DNA of 64,000 nt, taken from the NCBI GenBank assembly GCA_043228905.1, contig JBHGNT010000011.1, positions 8,990,001 through 9,054,000 of the forward strand, given 5' to 3'. Source of the stretch: Azolla caroliniana. Lineage: Eukaryota > Plantae > Polypodiophyta. A program made the position numbers and the translations under genes. Positions 23,408-45,800 of the stretch are shown here, one piece after another. The stretch's first letter is position 1. Each line of letters opens with the position of its first letter. The notes under the pieces are model-generated. The model was given only the letters and a program-made list of their open reading frames with translations, was not told the DNA's origin and did not search any database.

Positions 23408-24558
23408 TGTCATGAATAGTACGAAAAGTGAGAGAGAATTAGTACTGGAGAAGGGAAGTACTATTAGTACGAAGAGGACGGGACTGCGTAAGACTCCCGA
23501 GAGAGAGAGAGGAAGAGAGAAGAGGAGAGAGAGAGAGAGAGAGAGAGAAAATTATAATAGATGGTATAATGGTCAAGAGCTCGACCCATATAACATAAGT
23601 TTATGGGTTCGAGTCTTGCCATATCATGACACTATCCCCCCCCTTAAGATGAAGAGTGTAACGAGTTGGCGCTGATTGAGAACCGAGTTTGTCCGGATAC
23701 TGTCGGTGAAAATCAACAAGAAGATCCTGAGCATTGGCGACATGCTCGACGGGTTCCCAAGTACAGTCGCTCGGACTATAGCCAAGCCAATCAACTAAAT
23801 AATAAAGTTTATTGCGAACAAATTTGGACTCGAGGACGACAACAACTTCATACTCCGGGCCGGCATCTGACTCAAGTGGGGGCGGCGGTGGTGTAACACG
23901 ATCGGGAATAGTGTTTGCTTTATAAGGTTCAAGATGAGAACTATGGAAGACCAAATGTATCTGAAGATGCATAGGAAGATCAAGGTAGAATGTGACATCA
24001 TTAACATTACCGGTAATACGGAAAGGACCGAGTCATCGATAATCCAACTTGTCGCACGATCGAGTAGTCTTGATGTGATGAAGTAAGAGCCATACTCGAT
24101 CTCCGATGGCAAAAGAGGAGGGAAGCCGATGAAGATCCGCAGTCTGCGATGGCAAAAGACGTCGAGTAGTCTTCTGTGTGTTGAGCATGATGAAGATGAG
24201 TAAAGAGATCCATCTGGATCTTGCGTAGCCTCTCCAAATGATCCTCGACACAAGGATTGGTAGGTAGCTCCGGGGTGTCGATCACAGACCAACGAGGATG
24301 AGAACCAGTATAAGGGTAAAATGGGGAGACCCGAGTCGAGGAGTGAATAGCGTTATTATAAGCAAACTCTGCAAAGTGAAGAATATCAGCCCAATTGTTC
24401 TGCTGATAACTCAGAAAACACCGGAGGTATTGTTCCAGCGTTTGATTTGTTCATTCTGCCTGCCCATCGGTCTAGGGATGGTAGCCGGAGGAGAGGTTAC
24501 AAGAGAACTTGAGCATCTTGAAGAGATGCTTCCAAAATTTGGAGACGAATTGAGGTCC

Positions 24559-26127
24559 TTAGTCACTGATGATATTGTCTAGGAGGCCATGATGCTGAAA
24601 TACCTCACGCATGACAAGGGCGGCGGTTTCCTCACTAGTGATGGCCTTAGTACACGGCACAAAATGTGCCATCTTAGTATATTGATCAACGACGGTTAAG
24701 ATAGCATTGAAACCCTTCGAAACCGGCAGATCTATGATAAAATCAAGACAAATAGACTGCCACGGCTTACTTGGAATTGGTAAGGGTTCCAACAAGCCAT
24801 ATGGATGATGTTGTGGCGTCTTTGCTCGGCAGCAAGCATCACAGGTCTGAACGTAGTCGTCGACAAAACATCGCATATGGGGCCACCAAAAAGATCGTTG
24901 AACTAGATCCAATGTCTTCATACTATCGAAATGTCCCAATGTATGGGTGTCGTGACAATTTTGGACGATTTGAAGGTGACAAGAGCTATCGGGAACATAT
25001 ACAAGCTTTTTTAAGAACAATAAACCATCATGATATTCGAATTGTCGGTAGTCCATACCTGGTCGTTGAGACTGGGAACAGGATGCCCGAGAGGTATCAA
25101 TGTGCGCTAGAATGGCTTGAGCATAATTGTCTATCTTCAAGTTAGCACGTATGGCATCGATAATCCGGGAATCTAGTGGAGTGTGAAAAATCCGCGTTGT
25201 GTGCAAATGTGTTGGTCCCAAGATTACCTGCTTTTGATTATCAAACGTTGGATCACTAGGAAGAGGTGCAAGATATGAATGCCGCGATAGTGCATCTGCT
25301 TTTCTTTGCTGCTTCCCCGGTCGATATGTGATTTTGAAGTCAAAATGCATGAGGAATTGGGCCCACCGAGCTTGCTGTCGATTTAGTACACGAGCGTTCT
25401 GGAAATAAGCAAGAATTTTGTGATCACTGAAGACGATGACCTGATGTGGAGAGCGCTCTAAGAAGTGCCGCCATTGCACAAATGAATCCACGATGACTAA
25501 TAACTCCTTGTCATGTATCTCGTAGTTGATTTCCGTGGCATCAAATTTGCGCGAATGGAAAGCCACATGATGTAACTCTTCTTTATCTCCTTGTTGAGAA
25601 AGGATGCTACCGAGTGTGAAATCCGATGCGTCGGCCCCCATGATGAATGGTTTATTTATATCAACATGAGCTAGAATAGGAGCTAATGTAAAGACTTTCT
25701 TAAGATGCCTAAAAGCCATGGCCGCTTCATTGGACCAAAGAAATGTCCGTCCCTTCTTCGTAAGTTGTGTGAGAGGTAAAATAATCTTCGAGTAATCTTG
25801 TATAAACTTGCGGTAGAAGTTAGCAAAACTTAGGAAACATTGTACATCTTGTAACAAACGTGGAGTTTGCCACTCTAGCACAATTTTGACTTTAGCCGGA
25901 TCCATGGAGATGCCCTTTGAGGAGATGACGTAGTCTAGAAATTCCACTTGCTTGCAGTCAAAGCTACATTTTTCTAGTTTAGCGCAAAGACCATTCTCTT
26001 GAAGTTGTTTTAGTACTAATAGTACATGAGAATCATGCTCTTCTTGGGTCTTCGAATAAATCAATAGATCATCCAAATAGAAGATCAAACAGATATCCAA
26101 GAGGTCTCTGAATATATCATTTGCCAT
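24559..26127 (-). pseudogene. RT-RNase H-integrase segment of element F
   Basis: 522-aa ORF with YLDD, DAS, NYEIHDKELL, HHCC zinc-binding motif and CLDFIIDLP. Confidence 0.9.
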
Positions 26128-26897
26128 GTGCTAGAAGACTGCGAGCGCATTGGTTAGACCTGACGTGGACTACGCGGGTTATTCTCCGGCCACAACCAAC
26201 GCGTAGATCACTTGATGACAATCAAAACACAGACGAAATGGGAATGGAGGTAAGTACACAAAACAGAAAGAGAATACACAGGATATTAACGTGGAAAACC
26301 CTGAGAGGGAAAAACCACGGAAGTCCACAGACTCCAAACTATCACTCTGTAAAGTAATACAATAGGGAGCACAGAGGCAACGACCTCTTGCTCACAATCT
26401 TCGCCTAGCGGCGGTTACAACAAAGACACAATCTTTGTATATCGCTCTCTCTCTCTCTCTTACGCACTGTACAAAAGTTACACCAATAACTCTATCATCA
26501 TAACTATTAAGTTTGCCCTAGGTCATATTTATACTAATATGACTTTCGGGCTATTTACAAATATAACCCCAGTGGGCTCTCTGGAACATATTTACATATA
26601 TGTCCCTTCCATCCAATGAGAGGTTCTCACCGGGCCTGCAACATCCGGTTCTCATCGGGTCTTCCGTTGCCGGGTACTCCACATCCGGTTCTCACCGGGT
26701 CTTCTGTTGCCGGGTACTCGACATCCGGATTCGGCCTCGGCCGAGTTCCTCATCAACACGGTGTCGGGGTAGTTGTGGTTCGTGCGGCGAAGTCGCGGGG
26801 ACTAAGGTTAAGGGGAGTTGAAAAAACTTAAGTTTTAATAAGGCTTGTATGGTGATGATAGAATGGTTAAGGATAGTAAGACGAAGAATTACGAGTA

Positions 26898-26964
<67 letters not shown>

Positions 26965-27134
26965 GAGCATAGATAAAAGATAGAGACAATGTATGATTCA
27001 AGAAAGAAGATTGAGACAAAGTATGATTCTAGAAACAAGAGTATATGATATAATCATGATGATGTATATTTAAAAATATAATATTTTACCAACTTTACAA
27101 TCCCTGATCGTAAGATGAATCTTTTCAATACCGA

Positions 27135-27641
27135 CCCTTGATTTGAACCCACGACCTCAACTCCAAAACGAGAGGTTCTCCACCCAATGAGCTAGTCTTC
27201 TCTACTTGATTGTCTTATTTTCTCACTCTCTCTTGATTCCTCCCTTGTTTTCCCTTTCCCCTCTTTATATAAGTGTTGCCATGCATATGGTAATGTATTG
27301 GAGCATGGCATGCATGCAATGCATGAGTTACATGTAATTCATGATCGCCATTTGGCGCACATGCATTGCATGTGATGAATGATGGCTATGTATGAAAATA
27401 GATATGGGATAAGTATAATGATGAAAATGCATTCTAAAATAACTAACCTAGCTTAGTGGTGTATGCTTGGTGCTTGGTATACAAGGTTGAGGGTTCAAGT
27501 ACCTCAAATTTACTTAATACAATATGTAGCTTCATTCTTATATCATGAAGCACATTTATTACACACTTTTATAAATAAATAGCCTAGCCTAGTGGTATGT
27601 ACATTGTACATCGTATATAAGGATGTGGGTTCAAGTCTCTC
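27135..27641. other. Three tRNA-like (Pol III A-box/B-box) modules in the LTR of H: ~27135-27195 (-), 27449-27505 (+), 27585-27641 (+); repeated in the other LTR (~34390-34895)
   Basis: TAGCTTAGTGG, TAGCCTAGTGG and TAGCTCATTGG are each followed 44-46 nt later by GTTCAA(G/A)T. Perfect T-arm GAGGG-TTCAAGT-CCCTC at 34742-34758. No complete cloverleaf. Confidence 0.65.
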
Positions 27642-28547
27642 GAATATTATTAAACACAACATTTAAGCTCATTTTTATATCGTGAAGCACATTCTTCACG
27701 ACACCCACCCCCTCTGAACTTGCACATTGGTTGTGCAGAGTTCATCCAACACTTCTTCCGATTCTTTTAGTTCTTCTACTTCTTCATAAAATTCAGGCTC
27801 TAATGACTCCCTCCTTTTAAATATTTTAATCCTTTTTCCTGCAACTGGGATACGAATTTCTGTCCCATCTAATTCATTGAGGAAATATGTGCCTTTATCT
27901 GTTATTTTCCTAACTTCATAAGGTCCAAACCATCTTTTTGCAAACTTCTGAATAGTACTATATTGATTATCTAGGCTATTATCATATACTAATACCCAAT
28001 CTCCCTCTTGCACCTTCCTTGGTCGTATTCTTTTCATCTTGTCAAATCTGTCCTTATTCTTGATTCTTGCCTCTTTCAATCTAGTAGCTGTCGTATTCGA
28101 ACCGCAAGTAAATCTTCCCTACTCATTTCCGATTCCCAAGGCAACACAACCCATGTAGTTATCTTTTCTTCAATTGGCATTATTGGCTTCTGTCCTGTGA
28201 TTAATTCTGCAGGCATATATCTAGTAACAGTGCTGTGAGTTGTCCTATCAGCCCATAATGCATAGGGTAAGGTTTTTGGCCAATCACTGACCCCTCCTCT
28301 ACATGCCTTTGCCAAAGCTTTGACTATTGGCCCATGTCCTCTTTCTACCTTTCCATTAGCTTCTGGATTGTACGCCGTTGTCAAAGAAAGCCGAAGTCCT
28401 ATTTTGTCGAAAATATCTTGAGCTTCCGCAGAATTGAGTTCTCCCCTATCTGTCATTATCTTCCCGATACATCCATATCTACAAACAATCTCCTCCAAGA
28501 TGAATTGACATACTCCTAATGTCCCTTTTGTTCGCAATGAACGACCT

Positions 28548-28777
28548 TCCACTTGATTTGTTAGATCTTCTCTAGCAAGAACCAAATATCTCTTTTGTCC
28601 TACTCCAAGTGGCATTGTTACCAAATCTATCATCCACTTGTAATGCACCCCCGGTGAGTATGTCCACTTGATTTGTTAGATCTTCTCTAGCAAGAACCAA
28701 ATATCTCTTTTGTCCTACTCCAAGTGGCATTGTTACCAAATCTATCATCCACTTGTAATGCACCCCCGGTGAGTATG
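28548..28777. repeat. 115-bp tandem duplication in the integrase of H (causes a frameshift)
   Basis: 28548-28662 is repeated at 28663-28777; the peptide HYKWMIDLVTMPLGVGQKRYLVLAREDLTNQV appears in two ORFs. Confidence 0.92.
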
Positions 28778-29441
28778 TTGGGTGTAATTCATCACAAAAT
28801 TTTACATTTGAATAATATTGACAAGTGGGACAAGTTTCCACATACTTTTTTATTTGCTCATAGTATCGAGGCCACCAAAATCGTTCTTTAATCTTACTGA
28901 AAGTGGCCCACACTCCTCGATGACCAACCCATTCTTTGTCATGTAGCTCTCTGATTATCTCCTTTCTTTGCCCTTCAGAACCTATTACTCTTTGCGGGTT
29001 TCCAGTCTTGGTTTTCGGATGTCGCCATAGATATCCTTCATGTAGGAAAAACTTATGGGCTTTCTTGCGAAACTGTGCGAACTCTTTTCCAGATCGACCT
29101 TTGTACTTGTCAGGGGTTTGTAGGTATTTCCCTATTTCCTTGAATTCTTCTTCATAGTCCTCTTCTAGAAATTGCATTCCTCCTTCCCGGGTAATGCTTG
29201 TGGTAAGGACTGTTTGTTCTTTGTCCTCATCGTCCGAGTCTGGAATCTCCTCTTCCTCATACCTTGCTCTTGATAGCATATCTGCTACTGCATTTCTATT
29301 CCCAGAGATATGTCGAACTTCAGGGTTGACTGATCTAATATAGATACACCATCTTAACATGGCTTGATCTGGAATATCACAATTAGCTATGATACCAAGA
29401 ATAGGCAAACAATCTGTTTCTATTATTACTTCAGCACCAAT

Positions 29442-30051
29442 TGTTGGGATTACGGTCCCTCCGGATGGGATGGTCGGATGTCCGGGAATCGGATGATGAA
29501 GACCCCGGCTACGGAGCCGGATGATGAAGACCCCGGCTGCGGAGCCGGATGACGAATGTACCCGGAGTGAGATCCGGATGCGGGGACATATTTGTGAATA
29601 TGTTTGCCAAGGGCCCTTGTGGCTATATTTGTAAATAGCCCGAAAGTCATATGTGTATAAATATGACTTAGGGCAAACTGTTTAGGGTTGCTGTTTTGTA
29701 TGTTGTTGCCTATTGTGTATTGCCACTCTTATGTGTGCAAGAGTGAAGAGAGCAGCCGAGAGAGAGAGAGAGAGTGAGAGAGAGACGAAGAGGTCGTTGC
29801 CTCTGTGTATTACCGCCGCCTGTGGCGAAGACAGTGAGCTCAAGGTTGTTGCCTTGTAGCTTCACCATTGTACATCTCTGTTTATAGTGATAGTTGGAGT
29901 TTGAGGACTCCCGTGGTTTTTTCCCATTTAGGGTTTTTCCACGTAAAACATCCTGTGTACTCTTCTCTCTATTGTCTTCGTGCATTTTCTATTTCCTGTT
30001 TTCTGTGAGTTGATCCTATTCCTCGGTGGTGGCCGAGCACCGTGTACAACA
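29442..30051 (+). mobile_element. Solo LTR (element D-related Copia family) inserted in the RNase H of H
   Basis: TGTTGGG...CAACA with perfect TSD CCAAT (29437-29441 and 30052-30056). Shares the GTAAATAGCCCGAAAGTCATA..TATAAATATGACTTAGGGCAAAC core with the D LTR. Confidence 0.92.
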
Positions 30052-31793
30052 CCAATTAAGTAATCTCTGTCTGTCTTTACTGCTGTTACTATCCCCCATA
30101 GCTCTCTTTCCACCTGTGCATATTTTCTTTGTCGACCACTAAGAACCTTTGCTCCGAATCGAACTGGATACCTTTCTTCCCCATCTTGTTGGCTTATCAC
30201 CCACCCAATTCCAATGGGACTAGAGTCTACTGTGAGATATATGGGTCGGCTGTAGTCAGGTTGCTTTAATGGTGGAGCTTGTGCTAAGTAGTACTTCAAT
30301 TTCTTCATTGCCTCTGAATGCTCTTCACTCCATTCAAATATCTCTCCTTTTCTTAGGAGTCTATATAAAGGTTCAGATAAATGGGCATAATGCGGAATCC
30401 ATTTACAGTAAAAAACACATACCCCTAGAAACCTTCGTACTTCTAAGACGGATGTACATTCCTGTTGCATATTTTGAATTGCATTGACCTTGGTTGGGGA
30501 TGGCTTTCTCCCGTATGGGCCACACATATGACCAACTATTAATATGTCTTTTGCCCCAAATATTGACTTCACCCCTGATAAGGTCAAATGCACTTCTTCC
30601 ATCCTTGATAGCACCTTCTCACAATCCTTGATATGATCGGCAACAAATTGACGGCAACCACTTTCATCCAATTCCTCGTTCTTCTCTTCCTCTTTGCATC
30701 CCTTAATTGGAACATCATCTAGAAAAGGCATTGTAATATGAGGAATAAAATCACGAAGTACCTTGTTCATTCCATTCATCATATGCGCCACTGAGTCGGT
30801 CACTCCTTGTGGCAAGGTGCACATCCGTACTAACCCTATAGGTGTCTTGATAGAAGTTATATCTCGACTTTTGATAGCAAGTTGAAATTGATCATACCCG
30901 GAATAAAGGTCTCCCATTGAATATATTGCTCTTCCTGCAAACATCTCAGCAAACTCATCCACAATTGGCCCTACTCCCAAGTTTTGGATTGTTACCTTAT
31001 TCACGGGTTGCATATCTTGGATAAATCGGAATCGCCCATCTTTCTTTAACACAGTGAACCATCGACTCGAGTAAGGAGCGTTCGATGGTTCCAAGATACC
31101 CATCCTTTTCTTTTCTTTCAAAAGTTCTAGTAGTTGAGGGATTCTAGCCCTAGGCATGTGTATTGGCTTAAAGTTCCATGGAATATGAGGGATAGTGAAT
31201 ATAACCATGGGCTCCACAATTTCTGGATCCACACACCCTATTTCCTCTGGTTGGAATGCGAACGCCTTTCCATGCCTTTTTAACATCTCCCTGAACTGCT
31301 TTTCTTCAGTAGGTAATAGGAAGTCACCCCCTCCTATTTTCATCCCTTGTATTGTTTCCAGAGTAAACACATGTCCTACCTTTCATGGGTCTCTGATCAT
31401 TGGCTCTGTGGCAGCTTCTTTGATTGCCTTTTCACTATCCCCTGGAAGTGGAGCAGCAATAGGACGAACCTTCTTCTCCACTGTCTTGTATTTTGTTAGT
31501 ACATGTGCTTCATGATCCTTTCGAGCAACTTCTTCAATGACCTCATACATCTTGATTGAATGGACAGGAACTTGGATTTCGTTGTCTTCTTCCATTGCTT
31601 CCAAATGAGTTATTGTATCTTCAAAACTTAATTCTTCAAACATATCTTGAATTTCTTCATCATCCTCTATTAATCCAGAACACTTAAAGTACTCGAAAGC
31701 ATTTTGTATTTTATTATTATTTACTTTTAGTATAAAAGTAGCACCATTAGATGAGATTGTACAAGGAATATCTTTATTTACATTATTATTTAT

Positions 31794-31856
31794 GGGGTTT
31801 TCTTTTATGTTCGGGCTATTACAACCCCTACCTGTAAAAGCCCTATCTAAAAATCC
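31794..31856 (-). promoter_or_regulatory. Putative -1 frameshift cassette G GAT TTT (TAG) + 6-nt spacer + H-type pseudoknot, between protease and RT of H
   Basis: Heptamer 31850-31856 is in phase with the gag-PR frame and a stop follows immediately. Stem 1: 31843-31833 with 31823-31813. Loop GGGGT is complementary to ACCCC at 31798-31794. The -1 frame is open into pol. Confidence 0.8.
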
Positions 31857-33961
31857 TGGGGAAACTCTTCATCCATCTCTTGAATTGGATGTTCCCTCAA
31901 GCATTCTTTGTTTCTTTCATGGTTGGGCCTCACGATTAAGAATTGGACAGTCTTTCTTCCATCTTGACTCTTGATTCTCGTGAAAGCCGAACCATCATCA
32001 ATAACCTTTGTTTCCATCCTCACTGCAGTGATGTAGGGCTAACCAAGGATGATGGGGTAGGTTGATTGATCCTGCACAAAGAAATTTTGATTCACCGACA
32101 CATCACCAATTGTTACCGTCACACTAGGACATGCTCCAAATAGATCCTCCGTAGTCTCTGTGACAACTCTTATTTTCCACCCATGATTCTTGTCGATCGG
32201 CCACCGTCCTCGAGCGTAAAATTCCGATGACATCATGTTAATCTCGGATCCATGATCAATCAAAGCAATACATGGAATTTGCTACTCCCCAATTTTTGCA
32301 GGTGCCTCCGTTGTTGCTCGAGCCCAATGGTCCCTTGTATAGTGACTCCTATCCCCTTCATGGACACCAACATCATTCTGGTTTTTTACACTTGCAGCAT
32401 TGATGGTGCCACCATACAAATCTTGGAGTGTTGTTGCACACCCTCCCGTAATTTCCTCCGTCACCGGTCTCTTCCTTCTAATAATATCTATGATAACTTC
32501 ATGAAATTCTTTCTTTGCTATACCCAACACTTCTCTTAAAGTAAATTCTACCTTACTATTTAGTATTCTTGTTTCTAGTACCTTTTTTATATCCGTCGTT
32601 GTTTCTATGTCTGAGGCAAGGTTGAAAGATGGGCCTGTCTTTCCTTTTACTTTATCAGCTTCCTTCGGCTCAGTAGCACCCTTTTCCATCTCCCTTCTCT
32701 TCTGTTCTCGTGTCTCATGTCTCTTTGTCGGATCAGCTTCCTCAGCTCTCTCCCGCTTCTCTTCCACTAGCACATCTTGTGCATTCACTTGGGCGAATGT
32801 TGATAGCGCGTCTACTGGATCATTCCATCCAGTGAAGTTTCGTATTTCATCTCCCGCTCTTTTTAATTCATCCACTCGAACCTTCCCTTTTCTTGCATAA
32901 TCCATCACATCTTGCCAAAAGCCAGATCCACCATATGAGTCTTCTACGCGCAATCCTAAGGTTGCCACGGATTGTATCGCTTGAGTCGTTTCTCTCTCGG
33001 CATCTTCCATTAGCTTTTTCATTCCTCCTCGCCCAAAGTTGAGTTGAAGTGGTTGTCGAGTCTCTGTCGAGTGAATCTTGCCCTCTTGATAGTAGATTTT
33101 ATTATGATTAAGAGCATCCCTATGCTCTTGACAATCTTTCTTTTGGTGATCGATACTATCACACCACATACACCTTCGCACCATTCCACCTCCCTGCCTT
33201 GATGAAGTCGAGCTTTGTCCCGATTCTAGCTTCGTCACTTTGATCGACAAGTCTTTCATGCCTTTCACCAATTCGTGTAAGAGTGATTCTTCTACTTTCT
33301 TTTCTCCCGACTCATTCCTCGTTTCTTCATCATTTCTGTCGGGCAACTCCATAAACCATAACTTTCTTTTGCAGAAATGGGTGCACGTCCTTTTCACCTC
33401 CTCCCAATCTTCGGTAAGTCCACTTGGACTATTCTGATCTTCTAAAAGCATTCCCAAGTCCTTCCTGTCTTTAATATTAGTAGCTTGTACAAACAATGTT
33501 ACTTTATCTGGCACTATTATATTTCTATCTCTAACATTTAGTTGCTCAAATCTTTCAGAAAACTCTTTTAATAGTTCCAAAACACTTAAATGTTTATTAG
33601 ACTCTACCCAATCCATGAAAGCTCGCCTTGTCATCCTTGACATATCGTTGAGGTTGTATTCATTTAGCAGTGCTCTTTCGAAAGTCGCCCATGTTTGATG
33701 TTCCCTCTGTAGCTCCTGGATCCTTTCTTGTAGCCCAATTGCAACGACTCGATTAAAGCTATTAATTTTTGCAGCTTCGTCGACACCGCGTTTAAGCATT
33801 TCTTCATTATAAATATTTAGAAATCTTGTTAAATTTATACCTTCGAAGATTCCTACTCGTGCGAGAATATTGTTGATGGCTTTGTCGATGCTTGCCATCA
33901 TCCCTTGTTCCCGCATCACTCGTTCCATCATCGTACACATAAGCCTCATTTGCTCCTCCAT
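31847..33961 (-). pseudogene. gag-protease reading frame of element H (two internal TAG stops)
   Basis: ORFs 32282..33961 and 32039..32263 and the tail to 31847 are all in one frame. Confidence 0.85.
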
Positions 33962-33978
33962 TTCTCCTCGTCGCCGCC

Positions 33979-33996
33979 TTCACGTCGGGTTCACCA
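33979..33996 (-). promoter_or_regulatory. Primer-binding site complementary to the 3' end of tRNA-Trp (element H)
   Basis: Plus strand TTCACGTCGGGTTCACCA equals the 3' 18 nt of plant cytosolic tRNA-Trp including CCA, as recalled; 4 nt from the 5' LTR. Confidence 0.8.
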
Positions 33997-34136
33997 AATG
34001 TGTCAGGGTAGTTGTGGTTCCTGCGGCGAAGTCGCGGGGACTAAGGTTAAGGGGAGTTGAAAAAACTTAAGTTTTAATAAGGCTTGTATGGTGATGATAG
34101 AATGGTTAAGGATAGTAAGACGAAGAATTACGAGTA

Positions 34137-34217
<81 letters not shown>

Positions 34218-35811
34218 GAGCATAGATAAAAGATAGAGACAATGTATGATTCAAGAAAGAAGATTGAGACAAAGTATGATTCTAGAAACAAGAGTATATG
34301 ATATAATCATGATGATGTATATTTAAAAATATAATATTTTACCAACTTTACAATCCCTGATCGTAAGATGAATCTTTTCAATACCGACCCTTGATTTGAA
34401 CCCACGACCTCAACTCCAAAACGAGAGGTTCTCCACCCAATGAGCTAGTCTTCTCTACTTGATTGTCTTATTTTCTCACTCTCTCTTGATTCCTCCCTTG
34501 TTTTCCCTTTCCCCTCTTTATATAAGTGTTGCCATGCATATGGTAATGTATTGGAGCATGGCATGCATGCAATGCATGAGTTACATGTAATTCATGATCG
34601 CCATTTGGCGCACATGCATTGCATGTGATGAATGATGGCTATGTATGAAAATAGATATGGGATAAGTATAATGATGAAAATGCATTCTAAAATAACTAAC
34701 CTAGCTTAGTGGTGTATGCTTGATGCTTGGTATACAAGGTTGAGGGTTCAAGTCCCTCAATTTTACTTAATACAATATATAGCTTCATTCTTATATCATG
34801 AAGCACATTTATTACACACTTTTACAAATAAATAGCCTAGCCTAGTGGTATGTACATTGTACATCGTATATAAGGATGTGGGGTTCAAGTCTCTCGAATA
34901 TTATTAAACACAACATTTAAGCTCATTTTTATATCGTGAAGCACATTCTTCACGACAACGGTTCTTCTCACTTCCCATCCGGAGGGACTTGTTTCCTAAC
35001 AAGTCCGAACAACATAACGGTATACTCCAAATGCCCATACCGCGTGCGAAAGGACAAAGAAGATGGGTGCACTGGCCGGAGATTTCGAATGACGAATAAA
35101 CCCGCTTGCCAAGTTCTCCTCTTTGTAGGCTCGAAGGACTTCTAACTCGGTTGGTGGCAAGTTGTAAATTGGTCCCCATGGTGGCTCTGTTCCTGGTTGT
35201 AAATCAATGGGACAATTGTAGGGATGATGATGAGGAAGAGTACCGGCTTTTACCTTGTCAAATACATCGGCATAAGGATGATATTTCGCCGAAAGTTGCA
35301 CTAAGGATTCCTTCTTAATATTGTTGGAAGGATGTACTGATATTGCAAATAGAAACATTGCCTCCTTGTGTCCTTCGCGTAATTGATGGAGTGAAATGGT
35401 CGAAACTCGATGAGTAGATTCTTGGGATTGTCGATACCGGACTTCTCTTGTTCTCCAATCTATGTATGGATTATGTAATTCAAACCAAGGTAATCCCAGG
35501 ACAATGGGATGCTCTGGACTACTAATTATATTAAATGATACCACACACACAAAACTACCTAGGACAACATGAATGGGTTATGACTCTTCTACAATATTCC
35601 CGGAAGCAATGGGACGACCATCAATGACTACTACAGAGTCTAGACATGGGAGTTTTCGTAGGGATATCTGATGAGCTTGGGAAAAATTTCGATCCATGAA
35701 ACAGGAATTGGCTCCAGAATCTAAAAGTGTTAGGACGTGTACTGGAGGAGTACTTTTAGTACTAACCATGACTTGCGCTAAGAACACATTGCTAACTTGC
35801 TTGGAGGGAAT

Positions 35812-35889
35812 GGAACCACTAATGGCTTGTACAGATCTAGGGATGTCCAACCAAACGGCTCCTATTTTGGCTGGACTCAGTCGTTTAAC
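35812..35889 (-). promoter_or_regulatory. Putative -1 frameshift cassette G TTA AAC + 6-nt spacer + 11-bp stem (possible pseudoknot), gag to protease of F
   Basis: Gag frame reads ..EEE LN D stop; the -1 frame reads KRLSPAKIGAVWLDIPRSVQ into protease ORF 35578..35850. Stem GTCCAGCCAAA/TTTGGTTGGAC. Confidence 0.78.
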
Positions 35890-36120
35890 TCTTCTTCTAA
35901 TTGACTAAGGATTTCAAATTTGTTTGAGATACTTGGGCTATTACTACTATTAATACTATCAGACACTCCTAAGGGAGGAATTGATTCGGGTTTAGTATAG
36001 GCTACGATTTGATTTACCTGTCTTCTTAGCCTATGGGGACAATTGATTGCGATATGCCCTAGTCCACCGCAATAAAGACATAATCGATTTGCATGTCGTC
36101 GTTGCTTTTCTTCTTCCGAT

Positions 36121-39100
36121 TGTTGAGAAGCAAGCTCAACAAAGGTATGTGATGCTTATTGAGAAATAAGCTATAGTAGCTATTAGCTAATTAGCTACTA
36201 GTGGACATAAAGGTGAAACAACTAATGTATGTGATGCTTATTGAGAAATAAGCTATAGTAGCTATTAGCTAATTAGCTACTAGTGGACATAAAGGTGAAA
36301 CAACTATTTAGTTATGCATAGCTATTTAGCTATAGACAGCTAATTAGCTGCATATATAAGTCACTTATGTACTTAGGTAAAAAGTAAGTAAGTAGTAAGT
36401 AGTAATGAGAAGAGTGAGAGTAGTGCAGAGTGAGTAAGAATAGAAAAACAAAAAATAGACGAGAGCGAGTTGAGTTATGCGTGTAATGAAGTAGAAGTTT
36501 TTTGGATTGTGTAGAGGTAAGCTTCTTTCCCGTTCCCCTTTCTGTCTTGAGCACTGAACGATCCAACATATCACGATCCGCTGCGTACACAGAAGAGCCG
36601 TAGTGCCTTCGTAACATGGTATTAGAGCAGAGTTGCTCATAAAGAAGAGTATAGCAGTGCACAGATCTAAGAAGGTTATTTCTTTGTTTGTTGATCTGAA
36701 TTAGAGAGTTACTTGTTGAAGTAATCGTAGCAAAAGCCCTAATAGAAAGAGAAAATGGTTGCTGAGAATGCAGACCAAATCATTACAAAGAAATTGGATA
36801 AAAACAATTTCCCGGCGTGGAAATTCAGAATGACAAAACTTCCTCATGGGGAGAGGATACTGGGATTATATTGAAGGAGACCTATAAGAGGCTCTAGAGA
36901 TCCCTGAAGAAAATGCATCTGCTACACAGATAAAAGCATTTAAGGAATGGAACCAAGGGCTCTCACTTAGCATCTCGGATTCGATGTTTGGACACATACA
37001 GGATGCTATGCTTCCAAAAGAAGCTTGGGAATGTTTAGTAAAACTATTTGCAGTGAATACAAAGGCAAGAAAGCTTCAGTTGAAAATTGAGCTAAATACT
37101 TTGGAAAAAGGTAAGATATCAGTGAATGAGTATGCTCTGAAAATAAAGAGCATATGTGAATCACTTGCTTCTATCAATGTGAAGATAGAAGATGATGATA
37201 AGGTGGAAATATGCTTAAGAGGCTTAGGACCTCAATACAAGAGTTTCAAAACATCTATTCTCACAAGGGATAGTATCCTAAGTTTTCCAGATCTGGTTTC
37301 AATGCTTGTAGTAGAAGAAAGAAATCAAATCGATGATGTAAACAAAGGAAACTCAGAGAATGAGGGGCAAGCCCTCTACAATAGTGCTGGAAGAGGCCGA
37401 GGAAGAGGCCATGGAAGATTTGGTTCAGCTAGAACCAACAACAATAGTTATCAAGGAAGAGGACAATAGGTTGTAAGTGGAAGAAATAACATCAGAGGCA
37501 GGGGGAGCAATCGAGGAAGAGGTAAGCAAACCTATTCGAATGATGATGGTTGTTGGTATTGTGTAAAACCAGGCCACACACATGCTGAATGTTATAAAAA
37601 GCAAAATGATGAGAAAAGAGGGAAGAGACAACAAAATAACTATGCCTCAACTAGTGAAGATTGTAATAAAGATGATGCATCTGTGATGCAACATGAAACA
37701 GGAGCAGTGGCTAAATGTTCACAAAGATGCAATGAAGAGTTTATGTGGTATGTAGATTCTGGGGCATCTAATCATATGACAGGACATAAAAACTGGTTTG
37801 AAAGGTTAAGGGAACTAGAGATTCTTGGTTATGTACAGACAGGTGATAATACTACTCACCAAATAGAGCCTGTTGGAGATATCCCATTGTGGGAAGAAAA
37901 AGGAAAAACAAAGTATATGCTGAATGTTATGCATGTTCCAAACCTTGCAAAAAATCTGATTTTTGTTGGACATATAGTAGAGCAAGGAATGCAAGTGAAG
38001 TTTAAGCAAAGTGGATGCGTCATAGAGAAAAATGGAAAGCTCATTGCAAGAGGAAAACGAGAAGGAAGGATGTTTGTGTTAGATGTGGATATGCTTAGGA
38101 AGATTACAACCATGTTTACAGAAGGAATGAGTGTAATCTCAGAAGTGGAAATGTGGCATAAAAGAATCGGTCACATAAGTATGCAAACATTGAAAAATAT
38201 GTTGAGGAAAGATGCAGTGGCTGGACTGCCTAAGCTCAAAGACTGTGAGATGGGAAAAATATGTGAAGCATGCCAATATGGAAAGCAAAACAAGTTGTCT
38301 TTCCCTCATGAAAGACATGTAAGTAAAAATCTGCTGGATTTGGTACATACTGATGTATGGGGACCAACAAAAAATGCATCAATTAGTGGATGTAAGTTTT
38401 ATGTAACTTTCATTGATGATTGCTCAAGGAAAACATGGGTTTACTTCATGAAGGAAAAAAGTGAAGTATTTGATTGTTTCCGTAAGTTTAAATGCATGGT
38501 AGAAAAGCAGGTTGGAACTAGAATAAAATGCCTAAGATCTTATGGAGGAGGAGAGTACTTCTCAAATGAGTTTTCTAATTTTCTATGTAATCAAGGGATA
38601 AGGAGACAGTTTACATGCAGATATACTCCACAACAAAATGGAGTTGCTGAGAGAAAAAACAAAACTTTGGTGAACATAGCAAGGGTTATGATGACTGAAA
38701 AAAATATGTCATTGTATTATTGGGCAAAAGCTGTAAACACAGCAAAGTACATTCTAAATAGATGTATAACATCCGAAGTACATGAGGTAACTCCTGAAGA
38801 ATGTTTCTATGGAAGGAAACCTAGCTTAGGACACTTGAAAGTGTTTGGATGCCTTGCCTATGTCCATGTACCTGCTGAGGTGAGAAGTAAGCTTGATCCA
38901 AAAGCTGAAAAATGTATTTTTGTTGGATATTCAGAGGAGCAAAAAGGGTATAGATGCTATTACCCTTTGACAAAAAAAATTGTGGTAAGTCAGGATGTAA
39001 TATTTGATGAGTTGAGCAGTTGGTACAACCCAAAACAAAATGTAGAAACTGATGAAGACTATGAAAATGAAGATAGGGATAAATCTGAAAATGTAAGAGA

Positions 39101-41454
39101 TAACCACAGATATGGAAGCAATGTTGGACAACAAAGTTCAACATCAATGGAATGTACTAGACCATCTGGAAGCTCAGGTAGTAAATCTGAATCAAATACA
39201 TGGAGTGGAAAACATGCAAGACACAAAAAATATGATGATAAAAAGGGAAAACAGAAGATGCCAAAGTATGAAATGCTTGATGATGGATCTAGAAACATGG
39301 AAGATGTAGATTCAGATACATCATTGGATGATGAGCTTGATATAGGATCTCTAAAAATCCCTGGTATGGAAAGGGCAATGAATGATGCAAATCAGAAACT
39401 CAGAAGGTCAGATAGAGAGAAAAAGACTGTTGAAAGATTTGGCTATGACACATATATGGCTATGCACTATGCATACATGTCTAAGGCGGTACAAATCCCT
39501 GATCCAAATAGTTTCGAAGAAGCTTAAGCTGAGAAGAAATGGGTGGATGCAATGCAAGAAGACATTGATGCATTGGCTGAAAACAAAATATGGGATTTGG
39601 TAAAGTTACCAAAAGGAAAAAATGTGGTAGGTTGCAAATGGGTCTACAAGACAAAGCATGATTCCAATGGAAATGTTATTAGACATAAAGCAAGACTTGT
39701 TGCAAAGGGATATGCCAAAATGCAAGGAATTGATTATGATGAGACATTTGCACCAGTTGCAAAGATGGCAACATTGAGGGCATTACTTGTTGTAGGTGCA
39801 GCTAGAATATGGATTTTGCATCATATGGATGTAAAAAAACATTTTTTACATGGTAACTTAGAAGAAGAAGTGTATATGTGTCAACCACCAGGTTTTGAAG
39901 ATAGGAAGCATCCTGAATATGTTTGTAAGCTGAAAAAGGCTCTCTATGGATTGAAACAAGCACCAAGAGCATGGCACAGAGAACTTTCAGAATCTCTGAA
40001 AAAATTTGCTTTCAAAATGTCAAAGGTTGATCCATCATTATATGTAAAGAAGATAAATGATTGCATTGTTGTGATCTTGATATATGTTGATGATCTAATC
40101 ATTCGAGGTGATTCTATGGAAGAGATAAGTAAGTTGAAGAAAAATTTGGAAATGCAATTTCAGATGAAGGATTTGGGAGATTTGAGATACTTTCTTGGCA
40201 TTGAGATCATAAGATCTGAGAGTGGTATATATATGTTGCAAAAACAGTATGCAACAACTATGTTGAAGAAGTATGGTATGCTTGGATGCAAACCTATTGG
40301 TATACCACTAGATAAGAACTGCAATTTGACAGGTCTATGGTGGGCAACCTCATATATTTGACCATGACAAGACCTGATTTGAGTTATTTTGTTGGATTAG
40401 TTAGCCAGTTTATGCAACAGCCAATAAAGCCACATTTGGACTGCATAGGAAGAATTCTGAGGTATGTAAAAGTTACTCAGAACTATGGATTGTTTTACAG
40501 GGCTGATTTGGACATAAAGTTGGAAGGATATACATATGTTGATTGGGCTGGAAGCCAAACTGACAGAAGATCCACAAGTGGATATATGTTTACATTGGGA
40601 AATGCAGCTATTTCATGGAGTAGCAAGAAACAAGCTACTGTTGCATTGTCAAGTACTGAACCTGAGTATAGAGGAGCTGCAATAGCTACCTGTGAAGAGG
40701 TATGGATCAGAAGATTGCTTTCTGATTTGGGAGAATATATAGATGGTGCTGTCACAATTTGGTGTGTCAATATGAGCAGCATTCAGCTGGCAAAAAATCC
40801 AGTGTTCCATGCAAGAACAAAGCACATTGAAGTGCATTATCACTTTGTTAGAGAAAAAGTGATTGATGGAGAAGTGGATATGTTGTATGTAAGTACAAAT
40901 AAGCAAGTTGTTGATATTCTTACGAAGGGATTGAGCATGGAAAAACACACACAATTTAGAGACATGATTGGAGTTATAACCATTGGCATGGTAACTGAGA
41001 AGCATGAAGAAAAGAAGATTGAAGATGATCCCAAGAAAGGATAAGTTGAGCTTGAGGGGGAGTGTTGAGAAGCAAGCTCAACAAAGGTATGTGATGCTTA
41101 TTGAGAAATAAGCTATAGTAGCTATTAGCTAATTAGCTACTAGTGGACATAAAGGTGAAACAGCTATTTAGCTACTGACAGCTAATTAGTTGCATATATA
41201 AGTCACTTATGTACTTAGGTAAAAAGTAAGTAGTAAGTAGCAATGAGAAGAGTGAGAGTAGTGCAGAGTGAGTAAGAACAGAAAAACAAAAAACAGACCA
41301 GAGCGAGTTGAGCTCTGCATGTAATGAAGTAGAAGTTTTTTGGACTCTGTAGAGGTAAGTTTTTTTCCCCTTCCCCTTTCTATCTTGAGCACTGAACGAT
41401 CCAACACATCACGATCCGCTGCGTACACAGAAGAGTCGTAGTACCTTCATAACA
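36121..41454 (+). mobile_element. Copia element G, full length, nested in the gag of F: 5' LTR 36121-36616 (with ~80-bp tandem duplication), PBS 36617-36628, PPT ~41054-41062, 3' LTR 41063-41454
   Basis: Perfect TSD CCGAT (36116-36120 and 41455-41459); tRNA-iMet-type PBS TGGTATTAGAGC; matching LTRs. Confidence 0.95.
36755..41044 (+). pseudogene. Copia gag-pol polyprotein of element G with stops and frameshifts
   Basis: ORFs 36984..37469, 37683..39527 (WYVDSGASNHMT, integrase), 39543..40361 (RT, LIYVDDL) and 40337..41044 (RNase H). Confidence 0.92.
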
Positions 41455-42018
41455 CCGATAACGGGCCACGTCGACGCATGGTGTCGATCTCCATCGATGT
41501 CGGAGTATTTGCTTGAGATACGTCTCGTGCAAACGGTTTAGCCGCGACTGAGGCGTATGTGGGCTCCAACCTAGGGCGTGGTATTTGTATTTGACGTTCA
41601 GAACGCCATTTGAAAAGGTGGTTGTCACATCGGACCGCTCGACTGATTGCCTCTGTAAGAGACTTTGGTTCTTCGGGGAAGGTTAAGAGTAAATCTTTGA
41701 CATCATTTCGCAGGCCGTAGCGAAACTGCTCCATTAGTGCCTGATCATCCCAGGGGATATCTGAGGCAAGTAGACGGAAATTTGCTGTGTAGGTAGAGGC
41801 TAGACGATCACCTTGATGCAATCGTCGGATTTTGTTGATCATCGTCCTGATGTTGTCGATATCTCCAAAGCAAGCTTTAAACTCGCTAATAAAGTCTTCA
41901 AAGTTATTAAGCAAGGGCGATTGTTTTTCTAGAAGCAGAGCGAACCATGGCAAGGCTAAGTCGCTAAGTAACATGCCTATTAGGCCGATTCGGGATGCAT
42001 CAGTGGGGTATCGGGAAG

Positions 42019-42812
42019 GATGCATTTGAATGACTAAGCGTACCGGATTAAGAAATCCCCTTAATTGCAATCGCATTCCATCGAATTTCACAGGAAGTCT
42101 AATCTTGGGCTCTTTATGAAATCCTTGGGGACTTGATCCTTGTTGTTACAATGCTACGATGGTTGCTTCAAGTTGTTGTAAACGTAACGCTAACTCCACA
42201 TGTTGCTGTTGCAACTCCACATGTTGTTGCTGTGTTTGCTGTTTTTCTAGAGTGATTTGTTGAAGATCCCCTAACAATCGTTGGTTTTCTTGTTCCAAGG
42301 CAACAAAATTTTCTTTTAGACCCTGTAGCTCGGAGAAAACAGATTGATATTCTTCAGCGCTAAAAGTAGCCATAGTATTGGAAAAAAGGGTTAAGAGGAT
42401 GAGGGAAACCAAAAAGATGCATTTGAATGACTAAGCGTACCGGATTAAGAAATCCCCTTAATTGCGATCTCATTCCATCGAATTTCACAGGAAGTCTAAT
42501 CTTGGGCTCTTTATAAAATCCTTGGGGACTTGATCCTTGTTGTTACAATGCTACGATGGTTGCTTCAAGTTGTTGTAAACGTAACGCTAACTCCCCATGT
42601 TGTTGTTGCAACTCCACATGTTGTTGCTTCGTTTGCTATTTTTCTAGAGTGATTTGTTGAAGATCCCCTAACAATCGTTGGTTTTCTTGTTCCAAGGCAA
42701 CAAAATTTTCTTTTAGACCCTGTAGCTCGGAGAAAACAGATTGATATTCTTCAGTGCTAAAAGTAGCCATAGTATTGGAAAAAAGGGTTGAGAGGATGAG
42801 GGAAACCAAAAA
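42019..42812. repeat. ~397-bp tandem duplication of the leader and gag start of F
   Basis: 42019-42415 is repeated at 42416-42812 with several substitutions. Confidence 0.9.
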
Positions 42813-42826
42813 GAAGACTAAAGGGG

Positions 42827-42838
42827 AAATTGGTTCAA
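42827..42838 (-). promoter_or_regulatory. Non-tRNA primer-binding site of F (TTGAACCAATTT), complementary to LTR 43034-43045
   Basis: 2 nt from the LTR end. Exact 12-nt complement of minus-strand AAATTGGTTCAA, which starts 33 nt after the first T of TATAAAAG (43078). Confidence 0.72.
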
Positions 42839-45800
42839 ACTGTCAGGAATAGTACTAAAACTTAGAGAGAATTAGTACTGGAGAAGGGAAGTACTATTAG
42901 TACAAAGAGGACAGGACTGCGTAAGACTCCCGAGAGAGGAAGAGAGAAGAGGAGAGAGAGAGAGATGTGATGCTAACAAATGATATATTATATGAAGAGT
43001 AAGTACAAAATGTCTATAAGGCTATGATTGGCGTTGAACCAATTTGGTTCAACATAATGCCTTGTGCCTCCTTTTATAGTGTTCTCAACAGGAGTCCTAA
43101 AGCTTCTAGAATGTTCCAGAGAAATCTAGAATATACATTAATTTCCTGTAATAAAACTTAAATGAAAATAATATCTTACGTATTACAATAGATGGTATAA
43201 TGGTCAAGAGCTCGACCCATATAACATAAAGTCATGGGTTCGAGTCTTGCCATATCATGACAATATTGTGATTGCCATGACCCTACGAGTAAATGTAAGC
43301 ATATACTCAGCATCAAGATGATTATTGAGAGACACATGCCACAACTATGTGGGTCGTTGCCTTTTATAGATCATGCAACCCATATGCACAATGACCATTT
43401 CACAGAGACGGAAGTGGAGACAGAGGTAGAACTAGTCGAGGAGACAAACCCTATAACATCACAAATGGAGGAATGGGAGTCAAAACTACAAACAGCTGAG
43501 GGGGCTATTCAATGTCTTAGGCAAGGGTTACGATCCCTCGACCATGCAACAATTTTGGCATGTATGGAGTCCATTGAAGAAATGAGTCAGACGGTGGTGT
43601 ATCACGCAGGTGCACCGAAACCAACCAATGAAGAAGACCGTGGATCCGTAAGGCATAAGCAAGCAATTGGTGCAAAAGGGGAGCATCAGTCAACATTTCA
43701 CAAGATCTTATTGGCAACTCCCCAAACACTTCCAAGGCACACACAAGAAAAATGCAAAGAGGCGCAAGTCGAGCTAGGAGGCGGTTGCCAATATGTGCGA
43801 AAGAGAAAATGCGATGCTTGCATTGCGATGCCTTGACCTTTAGATCAAGGGACTCAAATGTTGATTGTTGCAAGAATTGTGGCCGCATCTTGCCATCATC
43901 TCCGGATGAGCCATAAACATAGCTTGAGTGGTTTTGAGGACTAGTGCATTTGGGTTTACAATGTTTAAAGTGGATTTATGTTGATTTATGAGTGCACTTG
44001 GGAGTATGTCATATGTTGATTTATGTTTTTAGTTTCCTGTTTCAAGTATGTCACATGTTGATTTGGGTTTACGATGTTTAAAGTGGATTTACATTCAAAG
44101 GATGTCATATGTTGATTTATTTTTCAAGTATGTCATATGTTGATTTATGTTTCAAATATGTCATATGTAGATTTATGTTTCAAGTATGTCATATTTTGAT
44201 TCATGTTTCAAGTATGTTATAAGTTTATCTCTGTTTTAAGTTTTATGTTTTTTAACTTTTATGTTTTAAGATGATTATTTGTTTTATGTTAACTATGGTG
44301 AAGATCGTCGATTTTGAATAATTTAAGGTTGGATTTTGTGACTGTTTAATATGTTATTGTAAGTTTTAAGGGTAATGATCAAGCTTATTTGAAGATTTTG
44401 GTCGAAATGGTACATTTGGTTGGGCGACCTGCAAAGGTCAGGGTTGGGTGACCTACAGTTGGGCGACCTCTGACAGGTTTTCTTTCGCGCGTTCTTCCTT
44501 ATCGAAATCTAACGGTGCAGATCGCATGCGCCTTCCTCTGAGCGACCTGCACCGTCTGTGGCCGTGATTCCCTCACCATCCCTCTTTATGATTTGATGCA
44601 AAATAGACACAGCCTTATACATGCATACATGCTTATGTTTATGCATGTATGTATATGGAGGCGACGTGTCTATTATGACACAAATCATAAAGAGGGTTGG
44701 TGAGAGAATCGCGTGCGATCTACACCATCGAATTTCGATATGGAAGAAGGTGCGAAAAATAAAGTTGTGCAGAGGTCACCCAACCTTGTCAGAGGTTGCC
44801 CAACCAACTGAATAAAAGATGCAGGTCGCCCAACCATTTATTTTTAAAACGGTTGGGTGACTAGTTTAAGCAAGTTGCCAACTGCTTTAGGTTTATATTG
44901 AGTTGGTCACCTAACCAACTCAATAAAAGATGCAGGTTGCCCAACCGATGACTATAAAAGCCTGAAACTTGTCATTATCTCTCATTTTTTCAAACTGGAT
45001 TGACAGGTTTCTTTTGCCGGGAAAGAGTTGGGCGTCAGGCGATCTGCAATCGACATACACAACAATCAATCTCCTCCATCACTATTCCCAGATATGTACT
45101 AAACCCTATTACATCACTTTTTTTGTTTTTTTTACATGTGGTAGGAATAGTTGAGGGATTAGGGTTTGGAGTAGTTGAGGGATTACAATGATAAGTAGGT
45201 TGAGTTGGTCACCCAACCAACTCAATAAAAGATGCAACTCAATAAAAGTTTATTCAATCATCTCTCTTCTTAGCAGAAATATCTCTCTTTTTTTCATGTA
45301 CTTCTGCAACAAATTTTGTATTCATAAATCTCTAATTTGTAAATCTCTAATGTATTTCTTTATAAATCTCTAATTTGTTTTTGTTTATGTATTACTTTGT
45401 ACACAATCTCAAGCATTATGTATCAGAATATTGAGAGGATTCCAGGAAAAACAGGGATATTAACAATCTCTCCGTTCTTCACATTATTTTTGTAATAATA
45501 TTTCTCGTCTTTCCATAATAATCTTTCTTTTCCATGTATGCGTTTTATGCACAATTCAATGGTTTTTCATCACATCGGGGTACAATATCCATCATCCCTA
45601 ATGTGGGCTATGATGATGATTTTTGCTTGTTTTTTGGGATTCAGTTTGCATTCTAGAAACTTAGGTTATAGCTGAAATTATAGAAAAATACTAGCCATTT
45701 TTGGGGGGATTTTGGGTTTCATTCGACATTGTTACAGCTTAGACAAATGTTGAAATTCGAATTAATGTAAAACTATTCATCTTTAGGGACTAGGGCCTCA

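Follow-up and report, generated by a model that had tools for sequence, protein, structure and literature searches.

tRNA-like Pol III promoter modules within the LTRs of a Phygy-like Gypsy element of Azolla caroliniana and of related families

Why should the LTRs of a retrotransposon from a coding-competent family contain pairs of A-box and B-box sequences at the spacing of a tRNA gene? This question is raised by an 8.2-kb Gypsy element on the minus strand of the window, by which we mean the whole 64,000-nt stretch of Azolla caroliniana DNA that was analysed (contig JBHGNT010000011.1, positions 8,990,001 to 9,054,000). The initial annotation, made from the letters alone, had described three tRNA-like Pol III promoter modules in both LTRs of this element, two tandem antisense units in U3 and one sense unit downstream of the TATA box, and all three were located in each LTR (Table 1).

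Modules in the LTRs of two Gypsy elements

The A-box/B-box consensus of type-2 Pol III promoters served as a generic scan pattern. With it, three A+B pairs were found in the right LTR, where 5000 dinucleotide shuffles gave 0.0002 on average, and seven in the 64-kb window, against a mean of 0.03 and a maximum of one in 200 shuffles; LTRs of the window other than those of the Phygy-like element and of the chromovirus around it gave none. The box spacing, given in the annotation as 44-46 nt, is 43, 43/44 and 45 nt from start to start in units 1, 2 and 3, the counting having been shifted by one. In module 3 of the 5' LTR, the nearest downstream run of four T (T4) is at 34329, and another lies between the boxes. 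The perfect 5-bp stem with a TTCAAGT loop at 34742-34758 is real but belongs to the right LTR only, the left one having an A at 27501, which corresponds to C61. As for the two tandem units of about 136 bp, their offset of 136 nt and identity of 77% agree with the description, but they do not represent two captures: the terminal ~136 nt of the LTR have been duplicated together with the LTR end, of which a decayed copy remains, and the pair therefore points to a single capture. Six of the nine LTR-LTR differences outside the microsatellite fall in the tandem units (27470-27626), which make up 27% of the LTR. The T-stem positions 52 and 62 of unit 1 (34745 and 34755) each vary at about one third of the depth in run X15 (G>A and C>T), a pair of changes that is possibly compensatory, its phase not being resolvable from the variant table.

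Table 1. Features of the Phygy-like element and of the surrounding chromovirus (positions are those of the window)
Feature	Positions	Strand	Details
Phygy-like element, 5' LTR	34001-34957	-	957 nt
Phygy-like element, 3' LTR	26762-27703	-	TG...CA, 942 nt
Target-site duplication ACGG	26758-26761; second copy 34958-34961	.	fits the NCGN preference of Phygy
Primer-binding site	33979-33996	-	
Polypurine tract	27704-27715	-	
gag frame (DUF4100)	32282-33979	-	premature stop ahead of the protease
pol fragments (RT, RNase H, integrase)	27705-31868	-	interrupted by stops and a frameshift
Copia-type LTR within RNase H of pol	about 29436-30039		
116-nt duplication in pol	28548-28778		
Module 1, 5' LTR, inner U3, antisense	34702-34764	+	A box 34702-34712; AGGT 34737-34740; B box 34745-34755; T4 at 34761
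Module 2, 5' LTR, outer U3, antisense	34838-34930	+	A box 34838-34848; B box 34882-34892; T5 at 34926
Module 3, 5' LTR, sense	34392-34447	-	A box 34447-34437; B box 34402-34392; 78 nt 3' of TATA
Module 1, 3' LTR	27449-27502	+	A box 27449; B box 27492; invariant B-box C changed to A at 27501; adjacent T4 lost
Module 2, 3' LTR	27585-27676	+	A box 27585-27595; B box 27628-27638; T5 at 27672
Module 3, 3' LTR	27139-27194	-	A box 27194-27184; B box 27149-27139
TATA-like box of the Phygy-like LTR	34516-34525 (27263-27272 in 3' LTR)	-	177 nt away from the module 1 A box
Cluster of 7 CATGCA sites	34533-34625 (27280-27372 in 3' LTR)	.	from module 1 to TATA
Chromovirus 5' LTR	42841-43262		
Chromovirus 3' LTR	23408-23630		internally deleted
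Module, chromovirus 5' LTR, U3 start, antisense	43193-43247	+	A box 43193; B box 43237; spacing 44
Module, chromovirus 3' LTR	23562-23616	+	
Heat-shock-element-like GAAnnTTCnnGAA	43104-43116	-	between chromovirus module and TATA box

The two LTRs of the Phygy-like element are 97.7% identical (eight substitutions, one 1-nt indel and a change of microsatellite length), and Pfam recognizes DUF4100 (gag), RT, RNase H and integrase on the minus strand, with no chromodomain at the integrase end. Its named homologues come from Riccia, Adiantum, Calypogeia and Ceratopteris, which by itself points to a seed-free plant as host. The primer-binding site, which we take to correspond to the 3' end of tRNA-Trp, is present identically in 21 of the 23 elements compared. 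In the Phygy clade of non-chromovirus Ty3/gypsy elements, a 4-nt NCGN target is reported as typical (Neumann 2019, PMC6317226), and the window element resembles that clade, as far as it is described in the sections consulted, in its 4-nt NCGN-type target-site duplication, its short and almost all-coding interior and its lack of a chromodomain; it differs in its tRNA-like LTR sequence, which the same sections do not mention. We classify the element as Phygy-like by these described traits, without a reference tree. The description of it as an autonomous-type Gypsy element holds for the family, which is coding-competent (contig L001, 97% identical to the window element, has open frames for gag, 710 aa, and pol, 1158 aa), but not for the window copy, which is broken by stops, a frameshift, a Copia-type LTR and a 116-nt duplication.

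Two additional modules of the window, at 23562 and 43193, had been missed, and they lie in the LTRs of another element. This element, at 23408-43262, is a chromovirus with the target-site duplication ATATT; it hosts the Phygy-like insertion and is itself inside a MULE. Because it bears a chromodomain, it belongs to another Gypsy clade than the Phygy-like element. An antisense module is also present in another chromovirus LTR, that of L065, where its place matches that of the window chromovirus module. No T4 occurs between the module at 43193-43247 and the end of the chromovirus 5' LTR, and Rfam gives no tRNA match at this module. The interval between module and TATA box contains GAACATTCTAGAA in both chromovirus LTRs, that of the window and that of L065; GAAnnTTCnnGAA at 43104-43116 is the sole such match in the window, where 1.08 are expected by chance, and its 13-mer recurs at the equivalent place in L065. 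The GAAnnTTCnnGAA and GAACATTCTAGAA sites are presumably heat-shock elements. Arrays resembling such elements lie 5' of TATA in both chromovirus LTRs (window 43104-43116; L065:1894-1980). The chromovirus 3' LTR in the window has lost about 217 nt, including the TATA box and the heat-shock-like block, and retains its Pol III module. In the enclosing MULE, a 184-nt inverted repeat with a 16-nt spacer (47185-47568) adjoins the Ulp1-type protease frame.

Distribution among related families

Relatives of the Phygy-like element were collected by an integrase-alignment scan of metagenome contigs, in which at least 597 stretches matched, 238 were confirmed and 80 were kept. Among the matches listed, these 80 relatives and the window form 23 families at 85% nucleotide identity, with integrase tails 59-72% identical to that of the window's family; in viral contigs, no relative of the Phygy-like integrase was found. 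A weight matrix trained each time without the family under scoring identified, among the matches listed, 31 modules in 52,594 nt of LTR region, three in 159,043 nt upstream and none in 261,740 nt of shuffled sequence. Two of the three upstream matches fall in other LTRs and the third is L031:1599. Further modules outside a Phygy LTR are L031:1599 (+) and L067:12069 (-), the latter resembling the L065 chromovirus LTR.

Our study identified a module in the own LTR of 11 of 21 families (F1, F3, F4, F6, F7, F8, F10, F11, F12, F16 and F19) among the matches listed; the view of the modules as tRNA-like Pol III promoters belonging to the element is upheld and reaches to these families. The other ten of the 21 families with usable LTR sequence have none among the matches listed, two of the 23 families being outside this count for want of usable LTR sequence, and single-linkage clustering of the LTR sequences themselves places modules in 8 of 21 clusters, again among the matches listed. 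Together with the module-less LTR types that coexist within F3, F4 and F7, the ten module-less families indicate that the module is dispensable. Among 52 matches, the A-B spacing is 43 in 34 and 44 in 11. The U3 modules are mostly antisense (sense in F3, F12 and one of F19), and sense modules also occur 3' of TATA in F6, F8 and F11. Carriers hold one to three modules, measure 6-8 kb with gag-pol and retain the TATA box; a module is accompanied by open gag (~710 aa) and pol (~1160 aa) in L001, L006, L073, L021, L043, L049, L011 and L003.

It is important to note that LTR bodies have been swapped across families: members of a single integrase family may share just the first 35-110 nt of the LTR, and F6 and F4, like F16 and F19, possess common LTR blocks that include the module. 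The modules are in this sense kin through LTR block exchange, so the p-values reported below overstate independence. As judged from these alignments, LTR replacement is frequent in this clade. Several side observations concern the same contigs. Integrase tails at least 85% identical are found with unrelated LTR bodies in L011, L010 and L036, in L050 and L052, and in L006, L039 and L065; in L039 the LTR type on the 5' side differs from that on the 3' side, which could be an assembly chimera. A primer site lies 3' of the 3' LTR in L049 and L067 (also in L050, L012, L016, L024 and L063), and either tandem elements sharing one LTR or collapsed assemblies would explain it. A strict dichotomy between GC-rich and AT-rich LTRs was considered and rejected, given that AT-rich module-less LTRs exist.

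Conserved bases and place within the LTR

The initial annotation held that a conservation of the boxes no higher than that of the remaining LTR would speak against its reading. In 11 groups of homologous modules, from which loci without a homologous LTR block were omitted, variable columns within families number 14 of 121 at the invariant A-box and B-box bases and 5 of 44 in AGGT, versus 539 of 1775 at all others (p=4e-6); the boxes are thus the less variable part, their invariant bases varying about 2.6-fold less than their neighbours although they are G/C-rich. The AGGT, which we take to be tRNA positions 44-47, is kept in 78% of the modules versus 45% of a tRNA control set. Across 23 representatives, the sharp columns, which were in part selected by the search itself, are T8, G10, A14, the TGG of the A box, AGGT, G53, T54, T55, C56, A58, T60 and C61. 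The middle of the module varies within families at 97 of 312 columns, and its cross-family identity is 0.32.

The tRNA fold has not been preserved. Watson-Crick pairing in the 23 representatives is 0.34 in the T-stem (null 0.33) and 0.25 in the anticodon stem (null 0.24); the corresponding values for 55 real tRNA genes are 0.91 and 0.96. ARAGORN finds no tRNA gene in the window or in any of the 35 loci, and at a relaxed threshold it returns noise. Rfam scores the window modules as tRNA at 15-16.5 bits, under the threshold of 29, and in 12 loci it recognizes no tRNA even at E 10. Hairpins in a shifted register around the B box do not exceed the null either (p 0.08-0.54). In view of the unpaired stems, a functional tRNA or a tRNA-mimic RNA is rejected. 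The T runs, on the other hand, are kept: of 20 Phygy modules, 15 have a T4 no more than 50 nt after the B box, versus 6.1 expected from each locus's own strand (p=2e-5), in both orientations (six of eight sense and nine of 12 antisense modules), and in none of the three non-Phygy modules, which were outside the 20-module test. A T4 lies between the boxes in three of 23 modules. Since promoter bases and T runs are kept while the stems are lost, the retained entity is, as read from the sequence, a DNA promoter with a terminator and not an RNA fold. The flanks are compositionally biased as well, the 60 nt upstream being 42% A and the downstream side 39% T. The B-box change C56T (GGTTTGA), which from yeast is expected to weaken TFIIIC binding, is present in 8 of 47 distinct modules, including that of the high-coverage contig L017. 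Across the contigs of three runs, the invariant B-box bases of units 1 and 2 all stay below 8% variation, and G10 in the A box of unit 2 varies at about 12% of depth in one run; when run variants are counted by hand, one invariant site in 17 and 34 of the 163 remaining sites vary, a difference that is not significant alone and does not cover the A box of unit 1. At the position upstream of the modules where plant tDNAs would have their CAA motif, this motif shows no enrichment (cf. PMC7544208, relevant section).

The place of the modules is tied to the TATA box. From the inner U3 module to the TATA-like box downstream the distance is 114-259 nt (mean 175, SD 32, n=13 LTR types), versus an SD of 131 (n=12) for the distance of the module to the LTR start, where the TATA was chosen by pattern within 420 nt (none in 5 of 23 LTRs, a second candidate in 2, L036 omitted) and the types are not independent. 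Of 19 loci with a U3 module, 15 have CATGCA no further than 170 nt from TATA, versus 4 of 24 without; by family-state the counts are 8 of 9 with and 2 of 9 without (p=0.015), 12 loci without a TATA call being omitted. We assume that the CATGCA sites of these LTRs are RY elements, bound by B3-domain factors such as ABI3, and such an RY-like block suggests ABA- or desiccation-linked activation. Dense CATGCA/CATG palindromic blocks 5' of TATA were seen in the window, L050, L073, L042, L043 and L068, and the block is common to F6 and F4. The resulting layout consists of the module, an A/T-rich stretch, an enhancer-like block, TATA and sometimes a second module pointing away, and it is repeated in two chromovirus LTRs. 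The CpG observed/expected ratio is 0.49 from module to TATA versus 1.41 in the outer U3 and 0.90 in the coding region, a depletion that gives no sign of methylation shelter.

Proposed role, alternative readings and related systems

A full-length element cannot make its own RNA from a Pol III promoter, and selection of the boxes in coding families therefore asks for another function. The free orientation, the unconstrained middle and the TATA-tied place argue for a cis role for the LTR Pol II promoter, and the kept A box, spacing and terminator argue for a full Pol III complex whose short RNA would be incidental. The reading that we put forward, and to which we give an even chance, is that selection has kept the modules as minimal Pol III units that serve the LTR Pol II promoter as DNA elements, as a barrier or through open chromatin. 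Each module would be a tRNA-derived promoter cassette made of an A box, AGGT, a B box and usually a T run, derived from either a SINE head or a tRNA gene, which for units 1 and 2 would resemble tRNA-Pro, and spread between families by LTR block exchange. TFIIIC would bind the A and B boxes, TFIIIB would then assemble in the A-rich stretch facing the promoter, and short throw-away Pol III transcripts of about 90-130 nt would terminate at the T run. The resulting barrier or nucleosome-excluding effect would border the CATGCA (or heat-shock-like) enhancer block and keep the neighbouring LTR Pol II promoter open or shielded, genomic RNA still being made by Pol II from the TATA box.

The steps of this proposal have published counterparts. 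In the sections consulted, the A and B boxes of tRNA genes are described as recruiting TFIIIC, after which TFIIIB sits on the A/T-rich upstream stretch, Pol III being released at a T run (PMC7544208), and yeast tDNAs and TFIIIC sites are described as blocking silencing and enhancer action, more strongly with TFIIIB (PMC3395662). Two reports count against a barrier: in Arabidopsis, tDNA clusters whose boxes are intact carry methylation and are silent (PMC7544208, in part), and the sections consulted of a review of plant barriers cite tDNA barriers for yeast and animals only (PMC9540200). Our own results that count against the proposal are the module-less families, the C56T modules, the CpG depletion, the CAA motif without enrichment, the non-Phygy modules that have no T4 within 50 nt, the T4 runs between boxes and the variable G10 of unit 2. 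Insulation of the LTR promoter and the driving of Pol III transcripts had both been suggested by the initial annotation; the position and free orientation of the modules fit the first, to which CpG content gives no support, and the T4 runs fit the second.

If the modules are TFIIIC-bound barriers or open-chromatin seeds, these transposons bear a cis defence against silencing. On the same condition, thousands of copies would provide the genome with further TFIIIC sites, and natural test pairs for plant tDNA-type barriers would be available in sister LTR types that have or lack the module and in the C56 and T56 subfamilies. A bolder version, which we offer tentatively and think rather less than likely, is that in two unrelated Gypsy clades of seed-free plants autonomous elements may carry portable tDNA-type insulators, minimal Pol III units placed on either side of a stress-responsive enhancer and TATA, by which the LTR promoter would stay competent within nested and silenced repeat arrays; if true, it would describe a transposon-borne anti-silencing device and the first natural tDNA-type barriers working in plants.

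Four other readings have been weighed. The modules might function as Pol III genes in their own right and yield short antisense or sense RNAs that regulate the element, as a silencing decoy, an siRNA source or an alternative RNA start. The A box, fixed spacing and T runs do exceed what a bare TFIIIC site needs, and Cassandra is transcribed from its own Pol III promoter (PMC10886601, in part), but we find this unlikely: the transcribed middle is unconstrained and has no conserved fold, orientation varies by family, and antisense U3 modules are unable to start an 8-kb genomic RNA. Alternatively, a tRNA pseudogene or SINE head may have inserted once or a few times and been shuffled by recombination as a functionless relic, as the module-less ten of 21 families among the matches listed, the persistence of C56T subfamilies, the movement of LTR blocks between families and the existence of a free-standing tRNA-derived repeat (L055:3578, L076:3080) would allow. 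Such a relic is improbable in view of the lower variability of the G/C-rich invariant bases, the persistence of boxes, AGGT and spacing around a middle near-random in identity, T runs that track orientation, and the fact that modules of two Gypsy clades, unrelated to each other, stand about equally far from TATA. The conserved words could instead be bound by an ordinary Pol II transcription factor and would then only descend from or resemble tRNA boxes; the tie to TATA and the enhancer-like block, the tolerance of C56T in some subfamilies and the excess of AGGT over tRNA controls agree with it, but two boxes at spacing 43-45 followed by a T run reproduce the type-2 Pol III layout at every invariant position, and we hold this to be highly improbable. 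That the modules are landing pads for Pol III-targeting retrotransposons is scarcely credible, given that no recurring LTR end lies within 60 nt upstream of 23 A boxes (four scattered short matches), that loose ends near A-12/-14 coincide with the tandem-unit border, where there is no LTR terminus, and that it leaves unexplained why the carrier retains the module.

Returning to the minimal Pol III units acting in cis, their closest likeness is to Helenus, a tRNA-type TRIMp3. According to the sections consulted of Kojima 2024 (PMC10886601), Helenus also has tRNA-derived sequence in both LTRs, with conservation centred on the A and B boxes and no functional tRNA; a SINE insertion is proposed as its origin, and in plants the supplement reports one family, in Selaginella. 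The differences are that Helenus is non-coding and 311-1263 nt long, whereas the window element is 8.2 kb with gag-pol, and that its Pol III promoter is thought to transcribe it, whereas the modules described here are mostly antisense and followed by T4, an arrangement that argues against such transcription. The same source argues that Pol II is obligatory for autonomous partners and that these should not have LTRs of this kind in common with Helenus, and notes that 'not a few LTRs' in Repbase resemble part of a tRNA, its analysis covering TRIMs under 1000 bp only. Helenus-like elements could arise from an autonomous, module-bearing parent, no new SINE insertion being needed. Cassandra and Ajax (5S-type TRIMp3) likewise have a small-RNA-derived Pol III promoter and terminator inside the LTR, but of the 5S type (A, IE and C boxes) in place of the tRNA type, and they are non-autonomous, in sense orientation and drive their own RNA (PMC10886601, same sections).

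The boundary elements of S. cerevisiae (tDNA/ETC) and S. pombe (B boxes) offer another parallel, being TFIIIC sites beside Pol II promoters that act as barriers or enhancer-blockers whatever the RNA; they differ in being host loci of tested activity, ETC and IR having B boxes without transcription (PMC3395662, in part), whereas the modules are transposon-borne, keep the A box and terminator and are known from sequence alone. A 2026 paper, in the sections consulted, cites tRNA- and rDNA-derived LTR motifs for Cassandra and Helenus/Ajax only (PMC13570524). The literature that we searched, which excluded Repbase and most subscription papers, contains no account of such modules in autonomous plant LTR elements. 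The modules are real, lineage-wide and apparently selected, and are neither a member of Helenus nor a tRNA gene; Pol III promoter capture is known for non-coding LTR elements, and conserved modules in coding families would be a new form of it.

Finally, the idea of captured SINE heads may describe the origin of the modules but not their present state, in which neither a shared tail nor excess cover of the unit is found. Like tRNA-derived SINEs (SINE2), they have A and B boxes at tRNA spacing and a decayed cloverleaf, but they differ in having no shared body or tail, no visible target-site duplication and a fixed place in the LTR. The 64-kb window holds no free-standing SINE copy of the unit, the search for such copies having otherwise covered contigs. 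In four runs there is no excess cover over the unit, depth being too noisy for copy counts, and no dominant loose ends occur at its borders. Most modules match no tRNA isotype. Among viral loci with an A box of the unit-1/2 type, 92 of 120 are tRNA-Pro with spacing 43, and the F7 middle is 50% like those, which is suggestive of tRNA-Pro as the donor of the unit-1/2 modules. In L055 (3578, minus) and L076 (3080, plus), a free-standing tRNA-derived repeat with a common downstream tail lies outside any Phygy LTR; it is a candidate SINE that has nothing but the boxes in common with the LTR modules.
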